Shown here piece after piece: positions 1 through 42,059 of a DNA stretch of 64,000 nucleotides. Source of the DNA: an uncultured archaeon (lineage in GTDB: Archaea > Aenigmatarchaeota > Aenigmatarchaeia > QMZP01); the NCBI GenBank assembly GCA_964389315.1, contig CAYMDJ010000001.1, forward strand, positions 543 to 64,542, written 5' to 3'. Every line of letters starts with the position of its first letter. Position 1 is the stretch's first letter. The notes under the pieces were generated by a model. It saw only the letters and a list, made by a program, of their open reading frames with translations. It was not told where the DNA came from and searched no databases. Both the position numbers and the translations under genes were made by a program.

Positions 1-3000
1 GCGGGCCGAGTTGTTGAACTCTCCTTCCCCGCTTGTCCTGTTCCCCCAGCCCGACCAGATTAAATTGTCCTCAGAGGTCCTGGTCTGGATTGTTATGGAG
101 GTGTCTTCAGGCTCTGTCGAGCTCCAGGTCATGTTGATGAAAGAGGACAGGGAACCTGTGTCAAAGACCTGGGAGGTATAGGTCCCGTTGTGCGTGTAGG
201 TTGTGGTGTAGGCGACGTCGAATCCCCTGTAGTTGTAATTGTTGGAGAAGTCGCTCTCCAGGTTCAGGAGGTTGCCCCAACCAGAGCCGTTCCAGGACTG
301 GCTCCACACCTCCTGGGAGCCTGATGTGTCGGATGTAACGAGGAACATGTTGTCGGTGTTGTAGTCCCTCTCTAACCGAAGGAAGAGCGGCATGGCACCT
401 AAGCTCTCTATCTGCCCCTCTGCCTCCCATGATGCTCCGTTCCATACCCTGTATTCCCCGCGGGAGTTGCCCTGGTCTGCCCAGACAGCGATTGCGCGGC
501 TAGAGTTGTCGAACTCAACGTCCATAGGAAAGTAGTATTGGGATAGGTAGCTGTCTGCCTCAAGCTCTGTCGGGCCTGACCAGGAGGAGCCGTCCCAGAC
601 CCAGCCGTTTATCTCGTCTGCGTCATCCCAGTCAACAAGGACCATGTTCCCTGAGTTGGGGTCTGCCGCGAGCTCAATTGCACGTGGAGCGCCCACGGAG
701 CCGAAAGCCGTTCCAGATTCCCAGTAATAGCCGTTCCAGATGGTGTAATTGAGCTTTGCATCGTCATATATTCCCCATACCAACATTGCCCTGGATTCGT
801 TGTCATATTCGACGTCGATTCCCTTGTATGTATAGCTATCATATGTCTCCAGGAAGACATGGTCGTGCCATCCTGTCCCGTCCCAGATCTGGGCCTCAAC
901 GTCATTAGAGGCGTCCTGCGTAAGCAGGATGACCTCATCAGATGAAGGGTCAGAGGCGAGCCTTACCCAGAGCATGTCGTCTGTTATGTCAGACGCGTAT
1001 CCAACAGAGCTCCAGGAGGAGCCGTCCCATATCTTGTAGTTGGGTATTGAAGCATCGCTTCCGTCGCGGTAGACAACCATGACGTGGGTATCGTTTATGT
1101 AGACAGCGTCAAACCTCTCATAGTCGCAGTGGGAGTTTGCCGTAATCAGGTCTGCCGAGCCCCACTTGTCACCGTCCCAGCGCTGCGCGTATATGTCGTG
1201 TGACGTGTCCATCGTAATCATCATGGCCTCTGACCTGTCAGGGTTCGAGGCTATCCTTACCCAGGCAATGTTTCCTGTAGTGTCGGTTGCAGTCCCCGCT
1301 GATGAGTAGCCCATCTGCCCGTCCCAGAGCCTGTATTCGGGAAGGGAGCGGTCTGCCTGGCCTATCCAGGATGTCAGGACTCTTCCAAATTTGTCAAGGG
1401 ATATCGCCCCGTTGCTGATATTGATGTTCTCCCGGGTTCCCAGGTCCCAAGATGAGAACGTGTGGTTTGAGGACCAGTTGGTGTGGGAGAGGTCGTCGGA
1501 GGGCTGGCAGTTCCATGTGAATTCCTTGTCTATCAAGCCCCCTGCCGGATGGATGTTGAGGGTCCAGTTTGAGAAGTTCCAGTAGCCGGTCATGTTCGAG
1601 TAGTTGATGATTTGCCATGTCCCTGGATAGTCTGACCAGAGGGTCATGTTCTCGAGGTTACCTGATGCCTGGGAGGCAGAGCAGTTGAACGGGACAGAGG
1701 TGAAGTGGACGGAATTGTTGTTGTCATCTGGGGTGGTCAGGTCGACGGAGTGCGGATAAAGTGTTATGAACCTGTCCTCTGTGACGTTCATCAGGCCGCT
1801 CGTCTCGTTCGCGTAAACCCGGAAGTAGGCGTCGTGCTCTGTTACCGAGGTCAGGTTTATGTAGCAATAGAACCCGTCAACTGTCATCGTTATGTTGTTC
1901 TGCGTCCCGTTGGCCCAAGTCATGTCCAGGATGCATTCGTCGAGCATCTCTCCGCCGGAGACGTTCACGTATATCCAGTCGTCCTCTGAGTTGGTTTCAT
2001 TGGGTAGGGTTGGAGAAACGAATGATGGGTAGAGGACGTTGGAGTATGTCATGTTCACCCAGTTGAGGTTCGGCTTGTAAAGCGAATTGTCAGTGGAGAG
2101 GATTGCCCGGTACTGGATGAACCGGGCACTGGTGTATATCACACCGCCCGGGTTTGTGTGATTGCTTCCTGCTGTCTGGTAATGCTCGGATATCTCCTCT
2201 TTTGAGAGCGTCCTGTTGTATATCATCAGCGAGTCAATCCTGCCGTCGAGGTAGCCATTATCTCCCGAGGTCTTGCTTATCGTGACAGCGTTGCCTGTCG
2301 CGCTCGGTGAGAAGTAGCTTTCCGTCTGGTTTGAGAGAGAGCCGTCAATGTAGAGCCTCTGTGTCGTGCCGTTCCAGGTCGCGGCGATGTAATACCACCT
2401 CCCGGTTTCAGGAACAATTGAGCTGGATTTGGGAAGCCATTCCGAGCCGTCGTTCAGAAGGAAGGATATCTTCCCACCCTCCGCTGTCTTGTCCATCCTC
2501 AGCCAGTATTCTCCGTCCTTCTGGAGTATCGTCGGGTATTCCTCAAGTGACGTGTTCCTGTCGAAATAGACCCAAGTCTCTATGGATATCTGGTTATTAA
2601 GCTGGAGGGTCGGGCTGCTCGGGACGCTCATGTAGTCGTTGATGCCGTCAAAGGAAAGGGAATTCCCGAAATGGCCATGATAAGCGTATGCGCCTGAGAC
2701 AGAGCCGTGGTTGTTGTTGCCCGACTCGTCCTGCGTCCAGCCAGAGGCGTTGACTGACTCAAGGCGCCAGAACGCCATTATATCCGACTCGTCCGAGAAG
2801 TTCCCCCCTGCCCAGCCAGTCCAGACAGAGTTGTCATCTGAGGTCCGGCTCTGGACGTCCAGCCGCAGGGCCCCCCTCTTGTAGATGTCAAGTATCTCTT
2901 CGGAGGAGAGGCTCCGGTTCCAGATTGAAAGCTCGTCTATGAGACCGCTCCAGTATTCGCTGGAATCATCTGTTCTCTTGGCTACGTGCAGGTCAGACGC

Positions 3001-6000
3001 AAAGTTCATGCTAATAGGCGAGAAAGATGCAGAGTTTGACAGAATTCCGTCAATATAAACCTTCAATGTCCCGCTGTTTTCCCTCACACCGGCGACATGA
3101 TGCCACATTCCATCATTTATGCCCCCGCCCACTACAGCTTCTCCTCCAGTGGCAATATCTAATGCTTCAAGAGATATGTTCCCATTCTTTACATCAAGCT
3201 TCCAGATGTAGGCGGCATTTCTTTTCCCGGCAATTACATGATATCCACTTCCCACACTCGTTGTCTTTATCCATGCCGATATGCTGAACCCGGACGTGCC
3301 GAAACTGAAATCAGAGCTATCGCTTATACTGATGTAATCGCCGCTCCCGTCAAACTCGAAAGCGCCGTTCAGCTTGCCTGATGCTGTGGGCGCGGCGTTG
3401 TCATGACCGGTCCCGTTGTTCCCTTCCCCGGAGAAGTCGTATACGTGGGTGTTGTTCTCGCCATAGGTGGAGTCGTTATTCAGGTGGAGGAGCAGGACAT
3501 TGCCGGTCATGTTGGCCCAGCCGTCTTCCTGGCTGTCCGGGAGCTCTGATTCGGTGTCGTTCCAGCAGTTGGTGCAGTTCCATGAGATGTTGGTGAAGGA
3601 AGAGAGTGAGCCCGTGTCGAATACCTGGGAAGTGTAAAGGCCAGTCAGGTTGGAGCCGTAAAGGGTTATGTTGGTTACGTTCGTGATTGTCTTGTCATGG
3701 GTCCCGAGGTCCCAGGAGGAGAATGTGTAGTTTGAGTCGGCCCAGTCGTCATCTGACTTGCTGTCATTGACGTAGCAGTTCCAGATGAAGGACCTGTCTA
3801 TGAAGCCGCCCGGGGGATGGAGGGCTTTGGTCCATGTGGAGAAGTTCCAGATTCCTGTCTTGGTCCGGGTGCCTATCTCCTGCCAGGAACCGGGATAGTC
3901 AGACCAGAGGGAGAAGGATTCGAGTGAGAAGGCCTCGTCGGTGAGGGCAGAGCAGTTGAAGAAGACTGAGGTGAACAGGACTGAGTCGTTGTAGTCCTCT
4001 GGCTCGTGGAGGGTCGTGACGACGTCGCTGTATTCGTATGTTATGTTGACATGATTGAGGTAGGGCGTGGAGCCGCCATAGAAGGTTGCCTTGTACTGGA
4101 TGCACCTGGCAGAGGTGTTTATCAGGCCGGATGGGTTAGTGTGGTTGCTGCTCCATGAGGTCCACCCGCCAGAGCAGCTTCCATCATTGGATGTGCGGGT
4201 CTGGACGGTTATGTTCGTAGTTCCTGGTTTCGTTTCTTCCCAGGAGATGTTCGACCACAGGGAGAGGGAGCCTGAATCAAAGGTATGGGACGTGTAAAGG
4301 CCAGTCAGGTTGTTTCCGTAGAGGGTCACGTTGGTCCCGTTTGCTGTCGTGTTTTCGTGGGTTCCGAGGTTCCAGGATGAGAAGGTGAAATTGTAGTCTG
4401 CCCAGTTGCAGTTGTCCTGGACGTCGCAGACATGGCAGTTCCAGAGATAGCCGGCATCGATGAAGTAGTAGTCGGATGGGTTTATGGTCTCTGTCCAGTT
4501 GGAGAAGTCCCATGTCCCTGAGACGTCCCTGCTCCCTATCTCCTCCCAGACTCCAGTATAATTGGACCAGAGGGACATGTTCTTGAGGTCGTATACCTGG
4601 CTGAGGGCAGAGCAGTTGAAGAATTCAGGGGAGGTGAAGTTTATCGTGTGGTTGTTATCAACAGGCTCTACGAGGGTGACGTTGAGGAGCTCTTCCCAGG
4701 TCCCTGACTGGCATATTTCTGCCTCTCCATCCGAGTCAGGGTCTCCCACGTAGCTGCTGTCATAGCATACGTCATTGTATACGCACATATCAGAGGCGTT
4801 GCAGCAGTAATTGTCTGCTGCGCTGGTCGTGCATGCCTCTGGATAGCAGACCCTGGTTATGGTGTATTCGCCTGCGTCGTCCTGGCAGCAGCTTCCTGTC
4901 GTCCCTGATGAGAAGCCTATGTCCCAGTTCGTGGATGCGCCTGTATAGCATTCGCACCAGTCGCTGTCAGAGTCCCATTCTATCGTGTAGAGGGTGAAGT
5001 TGTCTGACCTCTCCCATATCCAGGAGTCTCCCTCTGCATAGGCATCCGCGCTAGCGTTGTATGTCCCCTCAACGTCGCATACAGTGAAGCCGAGGCTGTA
5101 GGTCCAGTCGGTTGTGTTGGGGCTTCCTGCCGTGCATCCGCCTGACTGGCTGTCAAAGGTCATGGAATAGTCAGAGAATATGACGGTTCCATTCGGCCAG
5201 TAGAGGGTTAGGTTCATTCCATCAACCTCGCAGTCATGGCATTCAGAATCCCCACCAACAACCGCCCTGCAATCGTTTCCCTCGTAGAGGAATTCGCTGG
5301 CCGAGACGTATCCGGTGCTGTTCTTGCTCTTGCCGCAGAAGTCCTGGTTGGTTTCTGTTGTCCAGAAGGAGATTCCGCTGCAGTATCCCTCGTTCGGGCA
5401 TCCTATATCGCTTCCCATGAACGTGCAGGATGAGGAGCCTGAGGTCACTGAGCTTCCTGTGCAGAGCAGCCTGGATTTTGACGTGCTGTTGTAGACCAGT
5501 ATACTGATGTAGTCTGACTCCGGGTCTGATACAGTGGCGCTGGCGGTGACGTTGTCCAGGCCCTTTATGTAGCTTGACGGTGATATGGATTGTGAAGCTG
5601 GGTTGTTGGGGGTGAGGTTGTAGAGGGAGGTCCCTCCCTCGCAATAGGTGCAATTGAGGTTGGAGCTTGAGTTCTCAAAGGTGTCCATCACCCCGACTCC
5701 GCCGTCGTCGCCGCAGCACAGGCTTGCCCCGGTCATCCAGTCGAAAGCATTGCAGCCTGAACCATCGGTGCAGTAGGATTCCTGGGTGTCCCTGTCGATA
5801 TAGAAACAGGTCTCGTTGCAGATGTAGCCGTCAACAGGGCATGTGAGATTCTCATACTCGTCGCACTGGGAAGATGCGCCGCAGGCTGTTTCGCACTGGA
5901 GGCCTGACTTGCCTCCAAGGCCCGATTCAAAGCCGCCCGAGGCCTGCTGGTGGCTTGCGGGGTCACACTCCACGCAGTCGCCCTCTGACTCGTCCCACCT

Positions 6001-9000
6001 GAAGAACTCGTCTGTCCATGAGTCCGAATCATCGTCTGCTGAATCCGCGCATTCATCGTTTTCTGTCGTGGATGCCCAGCCAGACGGGTCCCTGTCAGCG
6101 CAGAAGGTTGGTGGGTTCACTCCAAGAACAGAGTATCCGGTGCAGTACTGGCCGTCCTGGTCGCCTGCAGGGTTGTTTATGAGGATTGAGTAGCTGTAGG
6201 AGCCTGCGTCCCATAGGTCGCTGGTCCCAGAGGATTCGTCGTCCACAATGTAGTAGGCGTTGAGGTCTGTGCATATGCCGGCTGTCCCCCCGGCAGCGCA
6301 GACGCCCCTGTCTCCTGTCCAGGACATCTCCTCGCACATGTCACCGTAGTCACCGACCCCTCCGTCTGTGCAGATGTTGTCTGCAGTGGTGTTGTAGTAG
6401 TCCCAGCCGGTCCATCTTGTTGAATCCTCGCCTGCATTGTCGTCATCAACCTGGTAAGTGCAGCCGGAAGCGGACTGGTCAGAGTTCCAGTCTCCGTCTG
6501 TCCCGCACCAGTATGAACCGCGCAGTGTGCAGGTCGTATCGTCCGTATCAAGGGTGAGGTTTCCTGCATCACTGCAGGAGTAAAGCTGGCCATCCAGGCA
6601 GAGTAGGGTTCCTGAGGCAGAATCGCTTGAGAGCTCAGAGGCGTAGAGGCAGCATGACGAGCCAGATGCTGTTCCGTTCTCGAAAGTGTCGCTTGTGCCG
6701 TCGTCGCCGCAGCATTTGCTTCCTGTTCCTGAGGAGCCTGACATCCAAACCAAACCGCCGCAGGTGCACCAGTTCTCATCAGTGTCGTAGGTTACTGTGT
6801 AGAGCTCGAACTGGGGCTGGTCCCAGTCAGACCACTCCCATACCCAGGTGCTGCTCTGATTCTCAGCCTTTGCAACGGCAGTTGCGTTGTAGGTTCCCTC
6901 CACGTCGCAGACAGTGTAACCAAGATTATATGTCCAGTTCTCATACTTCGGGTCGCCGGCTCCTGTGCAGCCTCCTGTCTGGCTGTCAAAGGACATGGAA
7001 TAGTTGTTGGGGTTGACAGAGGTCCCGTTGGGCCAGTAAAGGGTGAAGTTCATTGCATCCACATCACAGATATCACACTGACCGTCCCCGCCCACCTCTG
7101 CCGTGCAGTTGGCATATACTGCGTTCTCTGCGTATTCTGTATCCTCGCCGAACGTGAATTCAAGGACGTGCTTCCCGTAGGTGAGTGCCTGGCTGACCTC
7201 GTATCCGGTCTCGTTGCAGGAATAGTTCTCATAGAAGACTGCTGTGGTGGCATCGAGCCAAGTGATGTTAAGGACCTTGTCCCCGCAGCGCAGCTCAAGG
7301 AAGAGGAGGTCTTCGGTGGTATTCAGGTTGTGCCACGCAGTCCCGTTGGAGGCGCGGATTGAGAGGTTAGCCTCGCCCGTGGTGTTGAATCTGACAGTCC
7401 AGTTTCCCCCCAATTCAGGATAGCTTTTTACGTTGATTATGGTTATGTCCAGCTCATAGCTCTCGTTGGATAGGTGCGGGACAATCCAAGAGATGCGGTC
7501 TGTGAGCGTGTCGTTGTCCTTGTCTATGTAGGTCAGGTTCATGACGCGGCTCCTTGTCCCGTTCACGAGGCGGTAGAGCTTGTATGCCTCTTCAGGCAAT
7601 TCAGGGACGTCTGTGTAGGCCGTTATGTTCTCGTAGTGCAGCTCTGAGGAGATGGTTATGGTCTTCCTGTAGGGGGTTTCCTGGGCTTCTGAGGATTCGG
7701 GTGCAGGGGTCTCATAATAGACCTCAAAGTTTTTTCCTTGCCTTGTTATGGTGAGGGATATGGCATCGGGAATCCTCCTTTCTTGGGAGGCAGGCTCCCT
7801 GAAGGTTTTGTTGCTCAGGTCTTCCGGTATGCTCCCGCTGCTCATGTCTGTCATGCTGCCAGTAAGCCCGGTGCTCAGAGCATTGGTGCCTGTTTCGTTG
7901 AGGGTGACGTCATCGGATTGGCTAATGAAGGAAGATAGGATGCCCCTATACAGAATGGTTTCTGAAAGCTTTGATGGACTTACGGTTTCCCTGCTCTGGT
8001 TCCCTATTGCAAAGACACTTATGTTGGAGGCCTGCGGGGGGAGGAGGGTGGTGATTCTTTCAAGAGGGACAGAGGAGCTTATGCTCCTGAGCCACCGGAC
8101 AGGCTTGTTTATCTCAGCAGGAAGCTGAACGGTCTCCTCAAGGGCTTCGGTTATTTCAGACATTTTTTCAACGACCAGGAGCTCTACATGGCCGGATTCA
8201 GATGCGTTCATGGAATCTTCTGCAACAAAGGTTATTTTTCTCGTTCCTGTGAAATTGGTGTCCGGTATCAGAGTGGCCGCTGTGCCCGATATCTCCACGG
8301 TGATGTTTTCCGGCCGGGTTGATGAGAATGTAAGGTTGTCTCCATCCGGGTCCTGGCAGTAGTTATCCAGATAGATTGTCCTTTCTGAGTTCATGCCCCA
8401 GAGCTGATTCGGGATTGGAGACCATTCCGGGGGGAGGTTTGTCATGTTGGTTGTGTTCTCTGTGACGTTCTTGGGCAGACCGTGGACGACCGAGTAAGTG
8501 AGGTAATCTATCCGGAGGGTAGTGTTGCCGTGGGTCTCTATGAGGATGGTGTATTCGTCCTGCTCAGGGACATTGATGGAGCAGGTCTCCTCGCAGATGT
8601 CAGTGAAGAGGGTCATGATTGGTGTTGGGGCAGTAATGTTGGTCATGTTGGTTGTTATGTTCTTCTCTGTGACATTGGTGAGGTTCTCTGGGAGGGTCAG
8701 GTTCTCCTGGATTGTGATGTTGGTTTCGTTTGGTGGGAGGGTGACATTCCTTGGAGTGGTGAGATTTATAGAGACGTTCTCGGTGATGTTGGCTGTCAGG
8801 ATTTCACTGATGTTGAGAGAGACGTTCTCGGGGAGAGTGATGTTCTCGGTGGTTTCGTTGGGCGTTTGGTTTGTTGCACTACCAGTTACCCTACGCTCGG
8901 AGGCGTTCGACAGGTCGTAACCCTCCGCCGACTGGTCGGGTTGGGTGAGATTCGTCAGGGTTTCGGGGATTTCGGGGGTTTCTGAGAAGTTTTGCGACTC

Positions 9001-9546
9001 GTTGGGTGCTACATTGGTAACAGAATGGGAGTCGTTTGATGGGGGAGGAGTAAGGGGTTGGCTAGAAGAAGATGGTGAATCAGACATGTTGGTGCCGGCC
9101 AGCATGCCTGTTATGGGAGTATCGGGCGGTGGGGTGTGTCGAAGGTGGGTTGAATCGAAAATGAGAAGGGGTTCGTCGGTGGCAAGAAGCCACACCTTTA
9201 CGTCACCTTCTCCGACAACCGAACCGCTGAGGGAGACAGAGCTCAGGTCTCCAGCCGTCTCCGCTGAAAGGACAAGCGTCCCGTTCTGGAAGGACTGGTT
9301 TATCTTCTGCGTGTGGTAGGTCTCTGTCCCGAGAAAGAAGCCCGTCATGTTGGCGAACCCGAAGAAGAGGGCAAGGAGGATGCAGAGACCCAGCGCCGTT
9401 ATCACAGGCACCTTGCTTGAGGATTGCTCATCTGGTTCGTTCCCGAGGAAGACCTCATTCTCTCCAGTCTCGATGGAGTCATAGTAGAAGGATTCGCCAA
9501 GCTTCCCTTCGTCAGGCTTTTTCCTGGGAGGTTTAGTTTGGGTCAA
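1..9546 (-). CDS. Giant secreted/cell-surface glycoprotein, 5' part only (over 3,100 codons; the stop lies beyond the window). It has an N-terminal signal anchor, a region very dense in N-x-S/T sequons, a Cys-rich module region, three roughly 125-aa homologous modules, two LamG/ConA-like domains, and a C-terminal array of roughly 58-aa W-D-G-x-x-W repeats (beta-propeller-like). The start is probably TTG at 9546 or GTG at 9411.
   Basis: The minus-strand frame (codons on 3k+1..3k+3) was translated by eye at 1-60, about 2,900, about 5,000, about 7,500 and 9,340-9,606. All are in one frame with no stop between the TAG at 9606-9608 and position 1. No other minus ORF in this frame appears in the track across 9.4 kb. 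A hydrophobic stretch VPVITALGLCILLALFFGFANMTGFF follows an SSSK segment. Motifs include DELSIWNRSLSSEEI and DSLMIYNRTLSKEEI (LamG-like), plus recurring QTRTSxD..WxGW and SARxIQY modules. It is absent from the ORF track only because it has no in-window stop and no ATG start. Confidence 0.8.
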   Translation of the reverse strand, partial: MTQTKPPRKKPDEGKLGESFYYDSIETGENEVFLGNEPDEQSSSKVPVITALGLCILLALFFGFANMTGFFLGTETYHTQKINQSFQNGTLVLSAETAGDLSSVSLSGSVVGEGDVKVWLLATDEPLLIFDSTHLRHTPPPDTPITGMLAGTNMSDSPSSSSQPLTPPPSNDSHSVTNVAPNESQNFSETPEIPETLTNLTQPDQSAEGYDLSNASERRVTGSATNQTPNETTENITLPENVSLNISEILTANITENVSINLTTPRNVTLPPNETNITIQENLTLPENLTNVTEKNITTNMTNITAPTPIMTLFTDICEETCSINVPEQDEYTILIETHGNTTLRIDYLTYSVVHGLPKNVTENTTNMTNLPPEWSPIPNQLWGMNSERTIYLDNYCQDPDGDNLTFSSTRPENITVEISGTAATLIPDTNFTGTRKITFVAEDSMNASESGHVELLVVEKMSEITEALEETVQLPAEINKPVRWLRSISSSVPLERITTLLPPQASNISVFAIGNQSRETVSPSKLSETILYRGILSSFISQSDDVTLNETGTNALSTGLTGSMTDMSSGSIPEDLSNKTFREPASQERRIPDAISLTITRQGKNFEVYYETPAPESSEAQETPYRKTITISSELHYENITAYTDVPELPEEAYKLYRLVNGTRSRVMNLTYIDKDNDTLTDRISWIVPHLSNESYELDITIINVKSYPELGGNWTVRFNTTGEANLSIRASNGTAWHNLNTTEDLLFLELRCGDKVLNITWLDATTAVFYENYSCNETGYEVSQALTYGKHVLEFTFGEDTEYAENAVYANCTAEVGGDGQCDICDVDAMNFTLYWPNGTSVNPNNYSMSFDSQTGGCTGAGDPKYENWTYNLGYTVCDVEGTYNATAVAKAENQSSTWVWEWSDWDQPQFELYTVTYDTDENWCTCGGLVWMSGSSGTGSKCCGDDGTSDTFENGTASGSSCCLYASELSSDSASGTLLCLDGQLYSCSDAGNLTLDTDDTTCTLRGSYWCGTDGDWNSDQSASGCTYQVDDDNAGEDSTRWTGWDYYNTTADNICTDGGVGDYGDMCEEMSWTGDRGVCAAGGTAGICTDLNAYYIVDDESSGTSDLWDAGSYSYSILINNPAGDQDGQYCTGYSVLGVNPPTFCADRDPSGWASTTENDECADSADDDSDSWTDEFFRWDESEGDCVECDPASHQQASGGFESGLGGKSGLQCETACGASSQCDEYENLTCPVDGYICNETCFYIDRDTQESYCTDGSGCNAFDWMTGASLCCGDDGGVGVMDTFENSSSNLNCTYCEGGTSLYNLTPNNPASQSISPSSYIKGLDNVTASATVSDPESDYISILVYNSTSKSRLLCTGSSVTSGSSSCTFMGSDIGCPNEGYCSGISFWTTETNQDFCGKSKNSTGYVSASEFLYEGNDCRAVVGGDSECHDCEVDGMNLTLYWPNGTVIFSDYSMTFDSQSGGCTAGSPNTTDWTYSLGFTVCDVEGTYNASADAYAEGDSWIWERSDNFTLYTIEWDSDSDWCECYTGASTNWDIGFSSGTTGSCCQDDAGEYTITRVCYPEACTTSAADNYCCNASDMCVYNDVCYDSSYVGDPDSDGEAEICQSGTWEELLNVTLVEPVDNNHTINFTSPEFFNCSALSQVYDLKNMSLWSNYTGVWEEIGSRDVSGTWDFSNWTETINPSDYYFIDAGYLWNCHVCDVQDNCNWADYNFTFSSWNLGTHENTTANGTNVTLYGNNLTGLYTSHTFDSGSLSLWSNISWEETKPGTTNITVQTRTSNDGSCSGGWTSWSSNHTNPSGLINTSARCIQYKATFYGGSTPYLNHVNITYEYSDVVTTLHEPEDYNDSVLFTSVFFNCSALTDEAFSLESFSLWSDYPGSWQEIGTRTKTGIWNFSTWTKALHPPGGFIDRSFIWNCYVNDSKSDDDWADSNYTFSSWDLGTHDKTITNVTNITLYGSNLTGLYTSQVFDTGSLSSFTNISWNCTNCWNDTESELPDSQEDGWANMTGNVLLLHLNNDSTYGENNTHVYDFSGEGNNGTGHDNAAPTASGKLNGAFEFDGSGDYISISDSSDFSFGTSGFSISAWIKTTSVGSGYHVIAGKRNAAYIWKLDVKNGNISLEALDIATGGEAVVGGGINDGMWHHVAGVRENSGTLKVYIDGILSNSASFSPISMNFASDLHVAKRTDDSSEYWSGLIDELSIWNRSLSSEEILDIYKRGALRLDVQSRTSDDNSVWTGWAGGNFSDESDIMAFWRLESVNASGWTQDESGNNNHGSVSGAYAYHGHFGNSLSFDGINDYMSVPSSPTLQLNNQISIETWVYFDRNTSLEEYPTILQKDGEYWLRMDKTAEGGKISFLLNDGSEWLPKSSSIVPETGRWYYIAATWNGTTQRLYIDGSLSNQTESYFSPSATGNAVTISKTSGDNGYLDGRIDSLMIYNRTLSKEEISEHYQTAGSNHTNPGGVIYTSARFIQYRAILSTDNSLYKPNLNWVNMTYSNVLYPSFVSPTLPNETNSEDDWIYVNVSGGEMLDECILDMTWANGTQNNITMTVDGFYCYINLTSVTEHDAYFRVYANETSGLMNVTEDRFITLYPHSVDLTTPDDNNNSVHFTSVPFNCSASQASGNLENMTLWSDYPGTWQIINYSNMTGYWNFSNWTLNIHPAGGLIDKEFTWNCQPSDDLSHTNWSSNHTFSSWDLGTRENINISNGAISLDKFGRVLTSWIGQADRSLPEYRLWDGQMGYSSAGTATDTTGNIAWVRIASNPDRSEAMMITMDTSHDIYAQRWDGDKWGSADLITANSHCDYERFDAVYINDTHVMVVYRDGSDASIPNYKIWDGSSWSSVGYASDITDDMLWVRLASDPSSDEVILLTQDASNDVEAQIWDGTGWHDHVFLETYDSYTYKGIDVEYDNESRAMLVWGIYDDAKLNYTIWNGYYWESGTAFGSVGAPRAIELAADPNSGNMVLVDWDDADEINGWVWDGSSWSGPTELEADSYLSQYYFPMDVEFDNSSRAIAVWADQGNSRGEYRVWNGASWEAEGQIESLGAMPLFLRLERDYNTDNMFLVTSDTSGSQEVWSQSWNGSGWGNLLNLESDFSNNYNYRGFDVAYTTTYTHNGTYTSQVFDTGSLSSFINMTWSSTEPEDTSITIQTRTSEDNLIWSGWGNRTSGEGEFNNSAR

Positions 9547-9600
9547 GAAACCAGCCCCCGGAGTATTTCTGGGAGTGGAAAAGAAGCAAGTAACATGGTA

Positions 9601-9715
9601 GTTACCCTACAAAAAACTCCCATGTTATATAATATATGTATTGGTTATATTTATAGTTACCCTACAAATAGCTATCCTATTGGTCAGTAGGGTAATTAAT
9701 TCTTGGTGTAGGGTA
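9601..9715 (-). promoter_or_regulatory. Promoter/operator region of the giant gene. A 13-bp direct repeat GTTACCCTACAAA occurs twice (9601-9613, 9656-9668), and its inverted core GTAGGGTAA occurs twice (9687-9695, 9707-9715), in AT-rich DNA with TATA-like TATATAATATAT.
   Basis: The repeats are read directly from the sequence. They lie between the upstream gene end (9750) and the candidate start (9546) of the giant ORF. Confidence 0.45.
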
Positions 9716-9749
9716 AAAGTAGTGCAACTAGGTTTGAGTGTGGTGGTTA

Positions 9750-10211
9750 TCAATAGATGAGGGCGAGGTCAGCTGATATGTTTGTCATGTAGGTGTCTGA
9801 ACACTCATCACCGCAGCACCAGACAAGCCAGACTTTTTCTGTATCCATGTCTTCTGTGCATGGGACCGTTGTCAGCGTGCCTGCGGATTCTGATTCAAGC
9901 GTCTCGTTGCAATTGTAGATGTCAACGTCCTCACCATCACGGAAATTCATGCTGACGCTTGTCAGGGCCTCGGTTCCAGGATTGTAGAAGGACGTGACCA
10001 GGTTGCCGTCAATGCACTCAGATGGGCCATACTCAATATGGCAGCCTTCATAGGACTCTAGGGAATGGTATTTCCCCGGTGCCGGTGAATTGTAATCTGT
10101 GAACAGGACAGCCGCCCAGATAAGGATTACTGCTGCGATGAGGGATACTGATATGAGCTTCTCATTCCTCTTGATGAATCCTCTGTTCATAAGACTCTCA
10201 GACCGGGACAA
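9750..10211 (-). CDS. Small membrane-anchored extracytoplasmic Cys-rich protein (153 aa). It overlaps the upstream radical-SAM gene by 14 bp.
   Basis: ORF track. It has a charged N-terminus, the TM segment LISVSLIAAVILIWAAVLF, and an ectodomain with 10 Cys plus sequons (NCNET, NIS). Confidence 0.55.
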   Translation of the reverse strand: MSRSESLMNRGFIKRNEKLISVSLIAAVILIWAAVLFTDYNSPAPGKYHSLESYEGCHIEYGPSECIDGNLVTSFYNPGTEALTSVSMNFRDGEDVDIYNCNETLESESAGTLTTVPCTEDMDTEKVWLVWCCGDECSDTYMTNISADLALIY

Positions 10212-15485: not shown

Positions 15486-16517
15486 TTAAAGTGGCATGAG
15501 TGGATCAGGGGAGGAATAATCCCCACCAACGAGCTTTGCGATGAACCTTGAGCCTCCCTTGCATTTCCAGAGGTAGTCGCACTGCCTGCATGCATCCGGA
15601 ACGAATCTCAGGTATCTCAATTTCAGCATCAGGTCGCTGTTCCAGCATCCCATTATGTCAAGTGGATTCCCTATGTTCTCGCCTATATAATAGCTTGGCT
15701 TTGCAAACCCCCTTGGATCAATCACAAACCTGGAGTGCCCATCATCTGTTATGCCGCCGAGGGAAACGCTTTCCACTCTGGCAGCATCATAGAAGCAGAA
15801 GGGGATTGGATTAGCTATCACATAATTTGTCCCGCTGGTTCTGTTTATATTAATCAGCCTGTCAACAAGGGCCTTGAGGCCTTTTACTGAGGATGTTGCA
15901 TGCTGCTTTGTGGTTGGAATTGTTCTGTAGAGTCCCCAGTGGTCAAGGTCAAGTTCCTGGACGATTGCAGTGAAATAATCAAGATTCGTTATGTTTTCAG
16001 GTGTTGCAACGGTCCCTGCCCTAAGCATCCATATTCCAGTCTTTCTGACCATCCTGAATGAATCTATCTTCCTTCTGAAGGATTCGGCCGTTCCGCCGAG
16101 CCTTGCCTCGCTCTCAGGCGAGAAAGAATTGAGTGAGATGAGCAGGTTGTCTATGTATCTGCCTATTCTTACTGCAGCCTTCTTGTCAATGAGCGTCCCG
16201 TTGCTGTTCAGCAACACATCCATTCCAATGGATTTTGCATGGCGTGCCAGAACGAAGAGGTCCTTCCTAAGGAGCGGCTCCCCGCCCGTAAACCTTATAA
16301 TGTCTACTCCATTGTCATAGACGGCGTCTATTATTTCCTTTATATGACTGGCTGGCATTTCTGGAAGTGTCCTTCCAGCGCTGGCGAATGTGCTCCTGTT
16401 GAAGCAGAACTTACAGGAAAGGTTGCATCGTGCAGTAACTTCTATAATAATCTCGCTGGGCTTCTTTAGGACGCTGGGTACGGATGCATGGCGTTCTTCC
16501 GTAATTTCGTTTTCCAT
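15486..16517 (-). CDS. Radical SAM/SPASM-type peptide-modifying enzyme. It is the candidate maturase for the adjacent His-Xaa-Ser peptide.
   Basis: CNLSCKFC cluster, FTGGEPLL motif, C-terminal CRQCDYLWKCKGG (SPASM-like CxxCx5C). It lies 29 bp downstream of the peptide ORF on the same strand. Confidence 0.8.
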   Translation of the reverse strand: MENEITEERHASVPSVLKKPSEIIIEVTARCNLSCKFCFNRSTFASAGRTLPEMPASHIKEIIDAVYDNGVDIIRFTGGEPLLRKDLFVLARHAKSIGMDVLLNSNGTLIDKKAAVRIGRYIDNLLISLNSFSPESEARLGGTAESFRRKIDSFRMVRKTGIWMLRAGTVATPENITNLDYFTAIVQELDLDHWGLYRTIPTTKQHATSSVKGLKALVDRLININRTSGTNYVIANPIPFCFYDAARVESVSLGGITDDGHSRFVIDPRGFAKPSYYIGENIGNPLDIMGCWNSDLMLKLRYLRFVPDACRQCDYLWKCKGGSRFIAKLVGGDYSSPDPLMPL

Positions 16518-16546
16518 GTTTCTGATTGGTTTGCAGATTTAAACTA

Positions 16547-16819
16547 TCAGTATGATTCGTGGCTTGCGTGGGAGGAGTGGGAGGAGTGGGAGCCGTGGCT
16601 GGCGTGGTGGCCGTGCTGGGCGGTGACAGTGCCTGCATTCCAGGATATGTCAAAGCTGTTGGTGTGGTCGGCGGCAACCTCGGGCAGGAATGAGAGTATT
16701 GATATCGATGCCAGGAAGGCGCCAAGGCTGGCTGCCTTGTGCTTGGCAACCCTCCCCCTGTTGTCCAGGAGGAAGTCTGAGAACGTGTTCTTTATCTTGG
16801 GCAGGATTTCCCTCTTCAT
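16547..16819 (-). CDS. Putative precursor peptide or small protein (90 aa) whose C-terminus carries six tandem His-Xaa-Ser triplets (HAS-HGS-HSS-HSS-HAS-HES-Y), following a hydrophobic segment.
   Basis: Translated by hand: MKREILPKIKNTFSDFLLDNRGRVAKHKAASLGAFLASISILSFLPEVAADHTNSFDISWNAGTVTAQHGHHASHGSHSSHSSHASHESY. The RBS AAGGGAG sits 4 nt before the ATG. Confidence 0.6.
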   Translation of the reverse strand: MKREILPKIKNTFSDFLLDNRGRVAKHKAASLGAFLASISILSFLPEVAADHTNSFDISWNAGTVTAQHGHHASHGSHSSHSSHASHESY

Positions 16820-16883
16820 TCAACTCCCTTATTATTTGGGAACCTTCAAATAAATAGCTGAGTGGCGATTCGGTAAACGTCGC

Positions 16884-17351
16884 TCATGTCTTGGTGGTTT
16901 TCCTGCCCTGAGGGACTGCTTCTGAACGTCCTGGTTTCTCTGTCCCCTTGGCCCTGTCCGGGGTCCAGGGCTTTGCTATCCCCTCCGGGTCATCCAGCCA
17001 ATCGGATTCCTCAGGCTCCTCTGTTTCATCGGCCAATGTGTTTGTGGCAAGAGCCCTCCTTATTATGGCCTCCCTTATTGGCTGCTTCTTTGCGGCCTGT
17101 ATGACGTAGACAGAGTAGTTTATGAGCTCGTTGCTGAAGTCGAGGCAGAGCCTCTTCAGGTCAAGTCCCTTTTCCTTGGGCTTTATTGTGACGATAATCT
17201 GCTTCTTGGGTTCGCCCTCGAACAGGAAGTGAGCCTTGTCGAGGAAGACATAGGCAGCAGAGTAAATGACCTCCGGGGGATAGAGTTTCGTGTTAACGAG
17301 GACTGTGGCTTCCTTCCCCCCTGGAGCAATCCTTATTGTTTTGTGCAGCAT
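16884..17351 (-). CDS. Hypothetical protein (155 aa) with an acidic, Pro-rich C-terminal tail. It is the first gene of the peptide/maturase sub-cluster.
   Basis: ORF track. A TATA-like TATTTAAA lies about 25 bp upstream, and no family was recognised. The motif LCLDFSNELINY is only weakly reminiscent of the HxsD LLNDYxLRE motif. Confidence 0.4.
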   Translation of the reverse strand: MLHKTIRIAPGGKEATVLVNTKLYPPEVIYSAAYVFLDKAHFLFEGEPKKQIIVTIKPKEKGLDLKRLCLDFSNELINYSVYVIQAAKKQPIREAIIRRALATNTLADETEEPEESDWLDDPEGIAKPWTPDRAKGTEKPGRSEAVPQGRKTTKT

Positions 17352-17373
17352 GGAAATATTTTGTATACGGCGT

Positions 17374-18411
17374 TTAAATAGGAATGATTCCTCCCTGAAA
17401 AACGAGCGTGAGGACGTATCCTATAAGGATAAAGGCAGCGAAAGGCTGGGTCTGGCAGACCCTGACCGTAGCGAAGCCTATACTCCCCTGCTTCCTGAGG
17501 CGCTTTATCCTTTCAACGTCCGCCTTCGTGAGCTCATCCAGGCCGTGGACAAACCTTCTCTTCTTCTGCTGGAGGAATTCAACAAGGCTCGAGTTCAGGA
17601 AGCTTATCCTTGAATATTCTTTTCCCTTGCGGTATATTCCCTCTGCCATAATCATGCCCGGCACGAGTTTCTCTATTCGCACCTCGCTGGTGAACGTGTA
17701 GTATGCAAGGTGTATGAGGAAGAACCTGAAGAAAACGAATACACCGGCAACGAGGAGGAAGAACTGAAGGCTCGCCAGGGTGAAGAGGCCCTGGAAATCC
17801 AGGAGGGCCCTCAGGACTGCAAGGAGTGCGAAGAATGCCTCTGCCTTTGCGCTTATCGTGACTGAGAAGAGCTCATATACAGCAAAGAGGATAAGGATGG
17901 TTATGAAGTAGTCTGCCTCTATCCCGGCAAGCCTTATAAGGCCTGTGAAGAACCACATGAAGCCTATCAGGATGATGAATATGAACGATATCCTGTAGGG
18001 GTTGAGCGAATGGGTGATGGCTTTCTTTATGGAGGATGCCTTGCTTCTGATAATGACATAGGCAACCATGAACGCAAAGACCGGGATGAAGATGTTCGCC
18101 ATGTATGGGAGAACAAGGCTTTCTGAATAGAGTCCCTGCGGGAAGAGGAGCAGGAGGGCAGTGAAGAGCTTGGCATCCCCTCCTGGCCAGAGGCCGAGCC
18201 ACCAGAAGAGGAAGGCTATGAAGAAGCCATAGAGGAACGTGGAGGCTATAGCAAGTGTGTCTGTCAAGAGCGCGCCTGAAAGGGCCTGGTAGGCAATGCC
18301 CAGGAGCAGCAGGGCGAGGATGAGCCTGTTCCTTATTATCCCGTGCCTTATGTCCTGGTAGCATATGTATATGCCCAGCAACAGGACAGGGAGAAGAATC
18401 AGGTCCAGCAT
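17374..18411 (-). CDS. Archaeal prepilin/preflagellin peptidase (A24 family, PibD/FlaK-like) with extra C-terminal TM helices.
   Basis: Polytopic membrane protein with an N-terminal Asp region (YQDIRHG) and GLWPGGDAKLF (the GGDxKL second catalytic Asp motif). Confidence 0.7.
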   Translation of the reverse strand: MLDLILLPVLLLGIYICYQDIRHGIIRNRLILALLLLGIAYQALSGALLTDTLAIASTFLYGFFIAFLFWWLGLWPGGDAKLFTALLLLFPQGLYSESLVLPYMANIFIPVFAFMVAYVIIRSKASSIKKAITHSLNPYRISFIFIILIGFMWFFTGLIRLAGIEADYFITILILFAVYELFSVTISAKAEAFFALLAVLRALLDFQGLFTLASLQFFLLVAGVFVFFRFFLIHLAYYTFTSEVRIEKLVPGMIMAEGIYRKGKEYSRISFLNSSLVEFLQQKKRRFVHGLDELTKADVERIKRLRKQGSIGFATVRVCQTQPFAAFILIGYVLTLVFQGGIIPI

Positions 18412-18446
18412 TTTATGTTATTGGGGATTGGGATTAATAACCTGAC

Positions 18447-19886
18447 CTATTTCATTATGTTATCGTTCCTGTACCAGCTTAGGAAGGTTTTCCTGTCCCT
18501 TTCTGAGAAGACCAGCCTCCTGGTTATTGATTCCAGAACGTGGTTGTTAATCTTGCAGCGGTCATCCATGGCGAGCTTGGAGATTATTGTTCCCTGGGCA
18601 GCGTGTGTGTATATCGGACAGATGCCGCAGAACGGGTTCCATGCGCAGTTGTCGCAGAGGTATCCCTGCTTTGAGGATACGTCAATCATGCTGGTAGCAG
18701 TCTTGTTGTTGAAGACCCTGTTGTAGGGTGTGGTCTTTGCGTTTCCGAGCCTCAGCTCCTTGAAGAGCTTGCCCTCATCGCAGGTGTGTATGTCTCCCTT
18801 GTAGTTATAGAACAGCTGCCCGATAGCAGCTCCGCAGGGTGACTGTATGTCAACGAACATCGGATCCCATCTCTGCAGCAGCTTCTTGAGGAAGATGACT
18901 GTCAGATGCTCAAAGAACGGGGTCCTGGCATTGGTCTCTATTATGTAATCCAGCGTTTCGTCCCAGAACTTCAGGTATTCCTCGGGTGTGTAGCCTATGC
19001 TGTTCCATGCCTTGCCTGCAAGGCCTATGTTGTTCATGAACCTCAGGAAGATTCCGTCGAACCCGAGCCTGATATATTCGTCCACCATCTCCCTGCCATA
19101 ACCGAGTGAATGCCTGGTTATGGTGGTAAGGGCCCTGAGGTTGAAGTCGTGCTTCCATTCGTTCTTCATTCTCCCTATCCAGTATACAACGTCATCGTAA
19201 GTTCCCTTGCCATCGATGTATTTCCTGTTCCTGTTGTGGAGCTCCCTGGGGCCGTCCAGGGATGTTGCAATTCCCATAAGCCTCCTCTTGGCCAGGCTTC
19301 TGAGTATGTCCTCGTCCATTAGCGTGAGGTTTGTTACGAGCCTGAAATTCATTTTCTTGCCCGCTTTTCTGGATTTCTCCCTGGCGTAGTCAATTATGTA
19401 TTCCACCATAGGGAAGTTCATGAGGCAGTCCCCTCCCTGGAACTCTATCACGAGGCTGTCAGATGGGGTTTTCAGTATGAAGTCGACCACAGACCTTGCG
19501 GTTTCCTGGTCCATGTCATGCCCCCGCGATCCCTCACTGACCATGGAATGGCAGTATACGCAGGCGGAGTTGCACCTCATCGTGGGTGTGATTATATGGA
19601 GCGTGGGCGGCCTGAAGAGGAAGTGGTTCCTTTCTGCATAGGACCTGACGACATCCCTTACATTCCTCTCGGTGAGGATTATTCCCTTCTGTTCAAGGAA
19701 GGAGAAGAGAGTCGGGTCTTCCTCAACCCTCTCCAGCCTGAGGAGTTCATGCTCTTGCTCAGATAGGACTGCCCATGCACCGTGGTCTGTGGTCACAAGA
19801 TAACAATCTTCCAGCTTCTTGGAAACGAAATAGTTCGATGTATATTGCTTATCAGAGAAATCTGAGCTGAGGTGGGTTATTTCCAT
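18447..19886 (-). CDS. Radical SAM/SPASM enzyme with a roughly 100-aa N-terminal extension, which may be a peptide-recognition (RRE-like) domain.
   Basis: CNSACVYCHS cluster at about residue 105, GGDCLMNF motif, C-terminal CDNCAWNPFCGICP and a further Cys. Confidence 0.75.
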   Translation of the reverse strand: MEITHLSSDFSDKQYTSNYFVSKKLEDCYLVTTDHGAWAVLSEQEHELLRLERVEEDPTLFSFLEQKGIILTERNVRDVVRSYAERNHFLFRPPTLHIITPTMRCNSACVYCHSMVSEGSRGHDMDQETARSVVDFILKTPSDSLVIEFQGGDCLMNFPMVEYIIDYAREKSRKAGKKMNFRLVTNLTLMDEDILRSLAKRRLMGIATSLDGPRELHNRNRKYIDGKGTYDDVVYWIGRMKNEWKHDFNLRALTTITRHSLGYGREMVDEYIRLGFDGIFLRFMNNIGLAGKAWNSIGYTPEEYLKFWDETLDYIIETNARTPFFEHLTVIFLKKLLQRWDPMFVDIQSPCGAAIGQLFYNYKGDIHTCDEGKLFKELRLGNAKTTPYNRVFNNKTATSMIDVSSKQGYLCDNCAWNPFCGICPIYTHAAQGTIISKLAMDDRCKINNHVLESITRRLVFSERDRKTFLSWYRNDNIMK

Positions 19887-33790: not shown

Positions 33791-33860
33791 ATAATGCTAT
33801 TAAAAAGAAATCATAAAAACGGCTCCCAGACCGTGGTGTAAGCCGTTAAACACAATGCGA

Positions 33861-34712
33861 CTAACCCAATATTGATTTAAGGACCCTTGGTATCGAGCTT
33901 ATGATGTCAGAGGCTATCAGGCCCGGACCGATCTCCCTTTCTGCCATGTCCCCTGCCAGCCCTGTCAGATGTGCGCCAGCGCATGCTGCATTGAGCGGGG
34001 GGTTGCCCATTGCGAGAAAGCCTCCGCAGACGCCGGCAAGGATGTCGCCGGTCCCGCCCTTTGTCATCCACGGGTTCCCGGTCCTGTTTAGGAGGGTCTC
34101 CCTTCCGTTGGATATCACGTCAACCCTTCCCTTGAGGAGGATTGTCGTGCTGAGCTTCCTCGCGAGCTTCATTGTTTCCTGCTCCCGTTTCTTGAGGTCA
34201 GCACTCGGTTGGGAACCGGAAAGCAGGGAGAACTCCCTTGCGTGGGGTGTCAGTATGAAGCTCCTCTTTATGACGCCAGGATTCCCTGAGGCAGCGGATA
34301 TGGCATCGGCGTCAACGACGCAGGGTTTTTCAAGGAGATTAAGGAAGTTCTGGACGAAAACCGCCGTGTCAGACCTGTTGTCCAGGCCGCCCCCTATTAC
34401 GACAGCATCGAAGTTCTCTGCCTCATCGAGGAGGAATTTCGTGTGCCAGTTGTTCAGGTAGTCGGTCCGTATGGGGTCTGCTATGAGGTCAGGCGAGAAT
34501 GAGGATATCACATCCGCTGCCCGCTCTGGCGCACAAACGTGGACGAGGTCTGTTCCCATGCGCATTGCCGCGAGGGCAGAGAGCGCCGGAGCGCCCGAAT
34601 ACGTCCTGCTCCCGCCTATGACGACCAGCCTTCCGAAGTCTCCCTTGTGTGACCAGTCTTTCTTCTTAGGATAGCATGCCTTCAGCATCTGGGGCGTTAC
34701 ATATTTTGGCAC
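33861..34712 (-). CDS. ADP-dependent NAD(P)H-hydrate dehydratase (YjeF C-terminal domain / Nnr).
   Basis: GDFGRLVVIGGSRTYSGAPALSALAAMRMG ... KGGTGDILAGVCGG. Confidence 0.75.
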   Translation of the reverse strand: MPKYVTPQMLKACYPKKKDWSHKGDFGRLVVIGGSRTYSGAPALSALAAMRMGTDLVHVCAPERAADVISSFSPDLIADPIRTDYLNNWHTKFLLDEAENFDAVVIGGGLDNRSDTAVFVQNFLNLLEKPCVVDADAISAASGNPGVIKRSFILTPHAREFSLLSGSQPSADLKKREQETMKLARKLSTTILLKGRVDVISNGRETLLNRTGNPWMTKGGTGDILAGVCGGFLAMGNPPLNAACAGAHLTGLAGDMAEREIGPGLIASDIISSIPRVLKSILG

Positions 34713-39835: not shown

Positions 39836-40186
39836 GTGCCCCGGCGTATTTTGGGACACGGTTGTAATAAATTTGACCTCATCAAAGTATATATCATGGT
39901 GAGGTTCTACAGGAACACCGTGGTCAATGTTGTGAGGATATTCCGTTTTCTGAAGCAGGCGCATGAAGAGGACAGGGGACACCTGACCGTGAGCGAGATT
40001 GCAAGGGAGCTGGGAATGCACAAGTGGACGGTCTCGCGGACGCTTGACATATGGATGGAGCCCATAGTTGACATGGTCATACCAGAAGAGCTGGAGGACG
40101 TTGGCCTGAAGATAAAGCTGGTTTCCCTCAAGAACCCCGACATCAAAGAGGAGCAGGTCGTGAAGATGCTTTCGGTCAGGAGCTAG
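39836..40186 (+). CDS. Small winged-helix DNA-binding protein (putative transcription regulator). The start is possibly the internal Met at about 39896.
   Basis: HTH-like LTVSEIARELGMHKWTVSRTLD. Confidence 0.45.
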   Translation: MPRRILGHGCNKFDLIKVYIMVRFYRNTVVNVVRIFRFLKQAHEEDRGHLTVSEIARELGMHKWTVSRTLDIWMEPIVDMVIPEELEDVGLKIKLVSLKNPDIKEEQVVKMLSVRS

Positions 40187-40632: not shown

Positions 40633-41322
40633 ATGAGGATACTTGTGATAGCGGATATGCATGGCTATATTGATGAGGTGTCTGAGTTCTTCAGGAAGAT
40701 TGACGCCTCTGGGTTTGACCTGATAATCTCCCCCGGGGACTTCACGGACATGTTCAACCAGCCACCAGGCTTCTCACAGACGCATATAGCGGACCTGATG
40801 ATGCAGAAGCTCATCGCATACAACACGCCGCTCGTCTGCCTTCCTGGGAACCATGACCCCTATGAGATAATCGATTTGTTCAGGGAGTATGGAGTGAACA
40901 TCCACGGCAAGCATAGGGAAATTAAGGGAGAATCCTTCGTTGGCTGGGGTGGGGCGCTGACCCATTTCGGGACGGCGTTCGAACCGAGCGAGGAGGAGAC
41001 AAAGGCCTCCCTGGATGCGCTCTCGGAAAGGGTCAAGAAGGGGGACTTCACTCTCATTCTACACAACCCACCCCATGGAACGGACGCAGACCTGACGATT
41101 TCCGGTGAGCATGTCGGCTCGAAGGCGATAAGGGAGTTCGTGGACAGGATGCATCCAAAGCTGGTAATATCCGCACACATACATGAGGCGAGGGGGGTGT
41201 CAAAGCTGGGCGATATCACCATATTCAATCCCGGACCATTCTATGCGGGATGTTATGGTGTAATAGAGATTGATGGAAAAAACGTTAAGTGTGAATGTAA
41301 AAAGGTAGAGCTTGACGTCTAG
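40633..41322 (+). CDS. Calcineurin-like metallophosphoesterase.
   Basis: ILVIADMHGY, SPGDFTD, LPGNHD, ISAHIHE. Confidence 0.7.
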   Translation: MRILVIADMHGYIDEVSEFFRKIDASGFDLIISPGDFTDMFNQPPGFSQTHIADLMMQKLIAYNTPLVCLPGNHDPYEIIDLFREYGVNIHGKHREIKGESFVGWGGALTHFGTAFEPSEEETKASLDALSERVKKGDFTLILHNPPHGTDADLTISGEHVGSKAIREFVDRMHPKLVISAHIHEARGVSKLGDITIFNPGPFYAGCYGVIEIDGKNVKCECKKVELDV

Positions 41323-42056: not shown

Positions 42057-42059
42057 ATC

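Follow-up and report, generated by a model that had tools for sequence, protein, structure and literature searches.

What is the role of the short sequence boxes that lie in front of the gene for a giant surface protein in an uncultured archaeon? The gene begins near one end of the 64-kb stretch of DNA analysed here (hereafter the window). The original prediction had described four copies of a short motif in its promoter region, and had read them as a multi-site operator for a dedicated regulator or, alternatively, as an element for the control of phase or expression. Knowledge of gene regulation in DPANN archaea is scant, and the giant surface proteins of these archaea are regarded as the most likely means of attachment to host cells. 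The box set is new, while the kind of element that it appears to be, a multi-site operator on one promoter, is familiar; its main interest lies in the setting, the giant, strain-variable surface protein of a DPANN archaeon.

Judged from the sequence, the host is an uncultured, Aenigmatarchaeota-like DPANN archaeon: the best named relatives of the glycyl-tRNA synthetase encoded in the window belong to Candidatus Aenigmatarchaeota, with 64-70% identity. Contigs identical to the window were found in JGI metagenome samples and in Logan assemblies of public SRA runs. The giant ORF lies on the minus strand, an orientation that the original prediction did not mention, and is open from position 1 of the window to a TTG at 9546. 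This 5' part of the gene (1-9546, 3182 codons) runs off the window. The TTG start is also present in the orthologues. The encoded protein carries a membrane anchor at its N-terminus and very many N-glycosylation sequons, together with two Laminin_G_3 (LamG) domains, one Big_9 domain and one Toxin_R_bind_N-like domain.

A 203-bp gap (9547-9749) separates the TTG start from the stop codon of a minus-strand ORF at 9750-10211 (146/153 aa), which is a gene for a small Cys-rich membrane protein. This gene is preceded by a long run of genes on the same strand, with radical-SAM, glycosyltransferase, sulfatase and His-Xaa-Ser-system genes. In this run, the minus-strand gene at 16547-16819 (neighbours at 15486-19886) encodes a 90-aa protein that ends in His-Xaa-Ser repeats (HGHHASHGSHSSHSSHASHESY) and stands beside radical-SAM/SPASM genes. 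The adjoining ORF of 155 aa (16884-17351) has an orthologue in lineage L014 that is annotated as HxsD (PF27806). Together these genes appear to form a His-Xaa-Ser peptide-modification system inside the cluster that precedes the giant gene. Two further observations were made on genes elsewhere in the window. A gene for a free-standing LAGLIDADG_3 protein lies directly downstream of a family-B DNA polymerase gene (45730-46401 and 46563-49238, both on the minus strand). A small ORF precedes a gene for a ParE-family toxin (PF05016) at the window's edge (63092-63705), and the two probably form a toxin-antitoxin pair.

The box set and the promoter of the giant gene

Reading of the sequence and a pattern search both confirmed four exact copies of TTACCCTAC, two direct and two inverted, at 9602-9610 and 9657-9665 on the plus strand and at 9687-9695 and 9708-9716 on the minus strand. 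All four lie in the 203-bp gap, as described at first for a region of about 200 bp. The 13-mer GTTACCCTACAAA is found at 9601-9613 and 9656-9668 with the spacing of 55 bp given for it. The last of the four copies, given as 9707-9715, was one base off. The original prediction included neither a fifth promoter box, GTTGCACTAC at 9719-9728, nor an inverted doublet of boxes within the giant gene at 8873-8894.

Five copies of the 8-mer TACCCTAC are present in the window, where 1.0 would be expected; 100 dinucleotide-preserving shuffles all gave fewer than five. The relaxed core TTRYMCTAC gave seven matches in the 64-kb window (1.9 expected), all seven of them in 8874-9727. A weight matrix was constructed from 39 sites pooled from all lineages described below, with the consensus GTTRYMCTAC, in which TT and TAC are invariant. 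At a cut-off of at least 11 bits it gave seven matches across the 64 kb, every one in 8873-9728, and in 86 kb of related loci the matches were again nearly all located at the giant-gene promoter. We also considered an avoidance of the box elsewhere (none found against 5.3 expected from mononucleotide shuffles), but rejected it since the effect was gone with dinucleotide shuffles (1.9 expected). A word search of the literature with the box sequences returned unrelated primer matches only, and a scan of viral contigs for box doublets gave six unrelated matches, which were mostly coding repeats.

A related heptamer, ACCCTACCA (ACCCTAC), had been pointed out beside an ORB-like element at 42141. 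Only this 7-mer is shared, and it occurs 12 times in the window against 5 expected; the match does not reach the matrix threshold, and the orthologous origin region of L021 has not kept it. We regard it as a chance match. The intergenic region in question (42057-42311) precedes cdc6/orc1 (42312-43514), is A/T-rich and is largely conserved in L021, with the ACCCTAC at 42141 in a non-conserved patch. It is probably the replication origin.

The five promoter boxes are referred to here as A', A, B, C and D in the direction of giant-gene transcription, at positions -63, -52, -31, 0 and +55 relative to box C. On the gene strand, A', A and B point rightward. Box A' (GTTGCACTAC, 9719-9728, minus strand) is a matrix match and forms the distal limit of the conserved promoter module. 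Box A (TTTACCCTAC, 9708-9717, minus strand) follows at 11 bp start-to-start, and the two constitute a direct doublet that reads GTTGCACTAC-T-TTTACCCTAC on the gene strand, as 10-mers. Box B (ATTACCCTAC, 9687-9696, minus strand) is located 31 bp upstream of box C and is convergent with it. The 21-bp spacer between them contains the palindrome TAGCTA (9669-9674), 3 nt upstream of box C in gene orientation. Box C, which points leftward (GTAGGGTAAC on the gene strand; 9656-9665, plus strand), is flush with the TATA box TATAAATA (gene strand, 9648-9655), so that it stands at the BRE position. An A/T-rich block with the proximal promoter and predicted start region (CATATATTATATAACATGGG, 9619-9638, minus strand) and an ATG come next. 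They are followed by box D, also leftward (GTAGGGTAAC on the gene strand; 9601-9610, plus strand), a GGGGG run, the TTG start, about 650 nt of coding sequence and the intragenic doublet, both boxes of which are leftward. This doublet reads GTTGCACTAC-CA-GTTACCCTAC on the plus strand (8873-8894), is inverted with respect to A'-A, and falls in codons 218-225 of the giant ORF.

The start of transcription of the giant gene was predicted from promoter geometry. In front of 30 ATG-start genes of the window, 7-mers made up of A and T only are most frequent at two distances from the start codon, about 28 bp and about 12 bp. A TATA box followed by an A/T-rich proximal element is the layout of leaderless archaeal promoters. 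The giant-gene promoter matches this layout relative to a conserved ATG at 9623-9621 and not relative to the TTG: the TATA box lies at -31 to -24 from the ATG, and the conserved block CATATATTATATAAC at -15 to -1. This geometry puts the predicted start of transcription at 9623-9626 on the minus strand. Box C would then stand where the BRE belongs, and box D, which lies 55 bp beyond C, would span +9 to +18 of a leaderless transcript.

The ATG opens a short upstream ORF (uORF) of 26 codons (MGVFCRVTTMLLASFPLPEILRGLVS, 9543-9623, minus strand), which contains box D. Such a uORF of 25-39 codons is open in 12 of 12 lineages, with indels in frame, and its stop codon overlaps or passes the TTG in all 10 lineages in which the TTG position is resolved. 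In the clade of the window, the TGA of the uORF overlaps the TTG of the giant ORF, a rare start codon, as cTTGAc. A Shine-Dalgarno-like GGGGG (9555-9559, minus strand), conserved in alignments A2 and A3, lies 9-11 nt upstream of the TTG. From this arrangement, the giant gene looks as if it were coupled to a leader peptide by termination-reinitiation.

At the RNA level, RNAalifold predicted two hairpins: one at the 5' end, which has box D in the loop, and one of CUCCC with GGGGG, which covers the Shine-Dalgarno-like run. In these hairpins, no pair with compensatory changes was found, and the changes were one-sided and wobble-compatible only. An Rfam search of 9300-9900 gave no match at E values up to 1. 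A scan with a bacterial-type sigma-70 promoter and terminator model, which is not applicable to archaea, gave no match either. A T6 run (9611-9616, minus strand) at +8 to +13 of the predicted transcript, just before box D, is conserved in the clade of the window only. Oligo-T tracts are archaeal termination signals, and early termination at this run is conceivable.

Conservation of the boxes and variation of the gene

Orthologous promoters were collected from about 12 lineages (L005-7, L009, L012-L015, L017-L019, L020/21, L022-24 and L025). Their sources were contigs that carry homologues of the small upstream protein, one scan of a genome collection and one pattern scan of metagenomes, the last of which gave two contigs, a number too small to survey the population. 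When the first 380 aa of the giant protein were used as a query for homologues, one weak match and no additional promoters were obtained. The small upstream protein is just 43-75% identical to that of the window across these lineages. The boxes were nevertheless recovered in all of the approximately 12 lineages, with position and orientation kept and with diverged spacers. Fixed boxes in diverged spacers are the pattern expected of functional protein-binding sites.

Throughout alignment A2, box C reads TGTAGGGTAA and the TATA box is conserved as well; the two adjoin in every case. The sole variant of box C, GTAAGGTAAC, was found in L025. In 8 of the 11 other lineages, the matrix also detects a box B that converges with C from a distance of 30-32 bp upstream, and its sequence is either TTACCCTAC or GTTGCACTAC. 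The exceptions are L018 with the near-match GCTGCACTAC, L025 with a degenerate box, and L013, in which box B was lost to an IS insertion. TAGCTA is kept in six of the eight aligned A2 sequences (L017 has TAACTA, and the IS-disrupted L013 is unclear) as well as in L022, L025 and L020/L021, while the rest of the B-C spacer diverges. Box A' is also present in L014, L019, L021, L013 and L012, and the orthologue of box A is TTTACTCTAC or TTTACCCTAC in L014, L017, L019 and L021. The A/T-rich block downstream of the TATA box is near-invariant in all lineages.

Box D is found at +55 from C in the clade of the window. In the clade of L012, L015, L022 and L025, it is replaced by a 22-bp palindrome, GTTRTMCTAC-AT-GTAGKRCAAY, which provides a pair of boxes at +53/+65 and is followed by up to two further boxes at an exact spacing of 12 bp. 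A spacing of 11-12 bp is thus shared by the A'-A doublet, the intragenic doublet and the D arrays of L015 and L022. The core from C to D is the best-conserved stretch of the region, with 93-100% identity against 80-90% for the flanking coding DNA.

The intragenic doublet is present in L013, L014, L017 and L021, is decayed in L019, where the changes include a synonymous CGT-to-CGC, and is absent from the L012/L015 clade. It forms a local island of conservation (17 of 22 columns invariant), to be read against 13% of the 5' coding windows that are equally conserved. The island also covers the peptide LSNASER, and constraint at the protein level is possible. The first box of the doublet, however, alternates between the canonical variants GTAGGGTAAC and GTAGTGCAAC by lineage. 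This fact favours a role at the DNA level, and it is very improbable that both 10-mers match by chance. The second clade has conserved a single leftward box, GTTACCCTAC or GTTACCTTAC, about 204-228 bp downstream of C (L015 at 5774, L022 at about 2069, L025 at 773). It lies within the first 30 codons of the giant ORF ('GRVT'), a position that differs from that of the doublet.

Two cases show that not every box is indispensable. In L013, a TnpB/Cas12f1-like gene (376 aa, PF07282; 8480-9720) lies between boxes A' and C, and boxes A and B have been removed; C and D are kept, and the giant gene is intact. In the strain variant L005-7, box D carries two mismatches. At the right end of the L013 insertion, an additional box-like sequence, GTAGGGCAAC, was observed 20 bp (start-to-start) before C.

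The L020/L021 contigs, with about 82% nucleotide identity to the window, define the boundary of the module. They lack the whole 24-kb modification cluster (9730-33860 of the window; radical-SAM, glycosyltransferase and sulfatase genes) and retain all five promoter boxes and the intragenic doublet. In L021 (reverse strand, about 7900-8150), the stop codon of an NAD(P)H-hydrate dehydratase gene, whose homologue in the window is located at 33861-34712, meets box A' with no gap. Since a different upstream gene abuts box A' in L021, the box set travels with the giant gene and not with the upstream genes. No box was found at the far end of the cluster in the window (33791-33860). We considered that the 24-kb cluster might be an island inserted by site-specific recombination, and rejected this idea because a box is present at one end only.

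In L005-7 and L009, which belong to the population of the window, the upstream DNA is identical for 2-5 kb and divergence begins at or right after box D. Downstream of box D these variants are strongly divergent, and several contigs stop there. Behind a fixed promoter, the giant gene is hypervariable between co-occurring strains and forms a strain-variable island. Homologous recombination would give rise to breakpoints at the edge of the most conserved patch, and these do not in themselves require a site-specific mechanism.

Readings of the box set

These observations are best explained if the boxes are operator sites through which a single sequence-specific DNA-binding protein governs transcription of the giant gene. 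On the sequence data we consider this probable, with a substantial margin of doubt. The multi-site operator for a dedicated regulator, as proposed in the original prediction, is thereby its best-supported part, given that no other promoter in the 64 kb has the boxes and that about 12 lineages have conserved them. The regulator is probably a repressor, a direction that rests on rules of position. Repressors in archaea typically bind over BRE/TATA or just past the start, and binding upstream of the BRE is typical of activators (PMC5512572). Of all the boxes, C and D are the most conserved, and both sit in repressor positions, which favours a repressor. In the mechanism that we propose, a multimer of the regulator on C and D would block TFB and RNA polymerase. 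This complex may be stabilised by cooperative or looping contacts with B, A and A', which face the other way at distances of roughly whole helical turns, and perhaps with the intragenic doublet. The doublets and arrays with 11-12-bp spacing and the 22-bp palindromic form fit binding by multimerising dimers. Such repression would keep a very costly host-contact gene off until it is needed, and the combination of a conserved box set with a sharply strain-variable gene suggests active control of expression.

It is worth considering what else could preserve these sequences. The invariance of box C could partly reflect the function of the BRE itself. Other constraints could contribute to the conservation of box D and of the intragenic doublet, since both are within sequence that is transcribed or translated. 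As for the regulator, no DNA-binding gene conserved beside the locus was found. Pfam scans of the whole window detected HTH genes at 39836-40186, with weak wHTH matches only, and at 41319-42056 (HTH_3). Both had been named as candidate regulators; neither has boxes upstream, and neither shows a link to the site. A divergent 296-aa gene beside the L012 promoter was considered as a local regulator and rejected, with a weak DUF483 match only and no homologue at 43515-44402. The 10-bp box or the 22-bp palindrome would serve as bait for the regulator, and the motif could be used to search for co-regulated genes.

An activator, or a regulator with a dual role, is a serious alternative to the repressor. 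EarA, Ptr2 and TFB-RF1 are activators that recruit TFB or TBP, and a regulator on A', A, B and C might likewise recruit one of these factors to a promoter with a poor BRE, box D being incidental. Of the five promoter boxes, all but D precede the TATA box, and the sequence at the BRE position, GGTAAC, is unlike the stretches before other TATA boxes in the window. Archaeal activators bind immediately upstream of BRE/TATA, as EarA does with four short boxes (PMC5512572). Box C, however, overlaps the BRE position instead of preceding the BRE, and box D or the palindromic or triple array lies downstream of the predicted start in all lineages, which is a typical position for a repressor. The intact giant gene of L013, in which the IS removed A and B, also argues against a need for upstream activation. 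We therefore consider pure upstream activation unlikely, though by no means negligible. A more distant possibility, which we regard as most unlikely, is that the boxes reflect constraint on RNA or peptide, or a history of duplication, and not DNA-protein binding: box D would be part of a stem-loop or of the uORF, the intragenic doublet would be conserved as coding sequence, and local duplication or a mobile element would have left the upstream copies behind. The position of box D agrees with this, both in the loop of the predicted 5' hairpin, where changes in the arms are wobble-compatible, and inside a uORF conserved in all lineages; the intragenic doublet falls within the conserved peptide LSNASER..TGSATNQ, and a TnpB element does sit in the L013 version of the promoter. 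Yet boxes A', A, B and C lie in untranslated DNA upstream of the predicted start, where a reading at the RNA level cannot explain them, and their sequence, spacing and orientation are kept all the same. The hairpins have neither compensatory double changes nor an Rfam match, and relics of duplication would not hold their spacing within 1 bp while the spacers diverge.

The remaining explanation is an invertible switch, the form that the phase-control alternative of the original prediction takes at this locus. The A'-A doublet (9708-9728) and the intragenic doublet (8873-8894) would be crossover sites of a recombinase encoded elsewhere, which flips the 813-bp (0.8-kb) segment between ON and OFF states. 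The flipped segment would carry the promoter and the first 217 codons and so turn the giant gene off; the junction would read, on the gene strand, CTCAAACCTAGTTGCACTAC-NN(N)-TTACCCTACGCTCGGAGGCG together with its partner. The same boxes might also mark hot spots for the exchange of cassettes between strains. Much in the layout is compatible with this: 21-22-bp composite sites in inverted orientation, 813 bp apart, bracket the promoter and the 5' coding sequence, the same inverted arrangement recurs in L013, L014, L017 and L021, and the upstream boxes all have one polarity while C, D and the intragenic boxes have the opposite one. Strain variants diverge exactly from box D, several contigs end nearby, and a strain-variable surface-protein gene is the usual target of an inverton. 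Archaeal invertons, including the class of 'partial intergenic inverton', have been little explored (PMC10028968). What speaks against the switch is that its parts and products are missing where we looked. Pfam scans of about 55 ORFs across the 64-kb window detected no tyrosine or serine recombinase, integrase or invertase. All of about 17 contigs from 12 lineages have one orientation, although a minority orientation could escape assembly. A search of 5.8 billion protein clusters with the N-terminal 380 aa gave no complete short ORF of an OFF state. The intragenic arm is decayed in L019 and absent from the L012/L015 clade, in both of which the promoter boxes are still there, and doublets of the form GTAGTGCAAC-NN-GTAGTGCAAC also arise as ordinary coding repeats of the SATGSAT / TGSATGSAT type. 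The breakpoints at box D are likewise expected from homologous recombination in the most conserved patch. We consider an inversion switch, and cassette exchange at the boxes with it, very unlikely. In sum, the earlier interpretation is partly supported: the operator idea is its best-supported part, and the link to the origin, the named regulators and phase variation are not supported.

Comparison with known systems

The operator that we propose resembles several known systems in layout. The box sequence matches neither TATCAC-N5-GTGATA of TGM nor GTTN3AAC of SurR. The operators of the archaeal repressors MDR1, Phr, the TrmB family and NrpR overlap BRE/TATA or the start, usually as one or two palindromes. 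The present locus is similar in that box C lies over the BRE and box D just past the predicted start, positions that would allow a block of TFB/TBP or RNA polymerase. It differs in the number and form of its boxes: they are not palindromic, five to seven of them are distributed over about 130 bp, and the doublet at +0.8 kb may be an auxiliary site.

Tandem operators of ribbon-helix-helix (RHH) proteins, namely the metboxes of MetJ, the heptads of omega and the iterons of ParR-parC, flank promoters and are bound cooperatively by multimers. Short boxes about one helical turn apart, in direct and inverted orientation, that bracket a core promoter are common to these and to the giant-gene promoter. 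The length and the sequence of the boxes are different, nothing points to partition, and no RHH domain was detected by Pfam in the window ORFs scanned. The likeness to invertons lies in the inverted repeats on either side of a promoter and the adjoining 5' end of a gene for a surface protein (PMC10028968); here, by contrast, no recombinase is encoded nearby, the contigs have a single orientation, and one arm is dispensable in relatives.

The boxes of EarA at the fla (archaellum) promoter of Methanococcus maripaludis provide the parallel in a cell-surface setting. EarA is a dedicated activator with four 6-bp boxes immediately upstream of the fla BRE (PMC5512572). The boxes of the giant gene are 10 bp long, have another sequence, occur in both orientations, overlap the BRE and are also found downstream of the start. 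The likeness is therefore one of architecture: in both cases, short consensus boxes are placed by the BRE/TATA of a gene for a cell-surface structure (PMC5512572).
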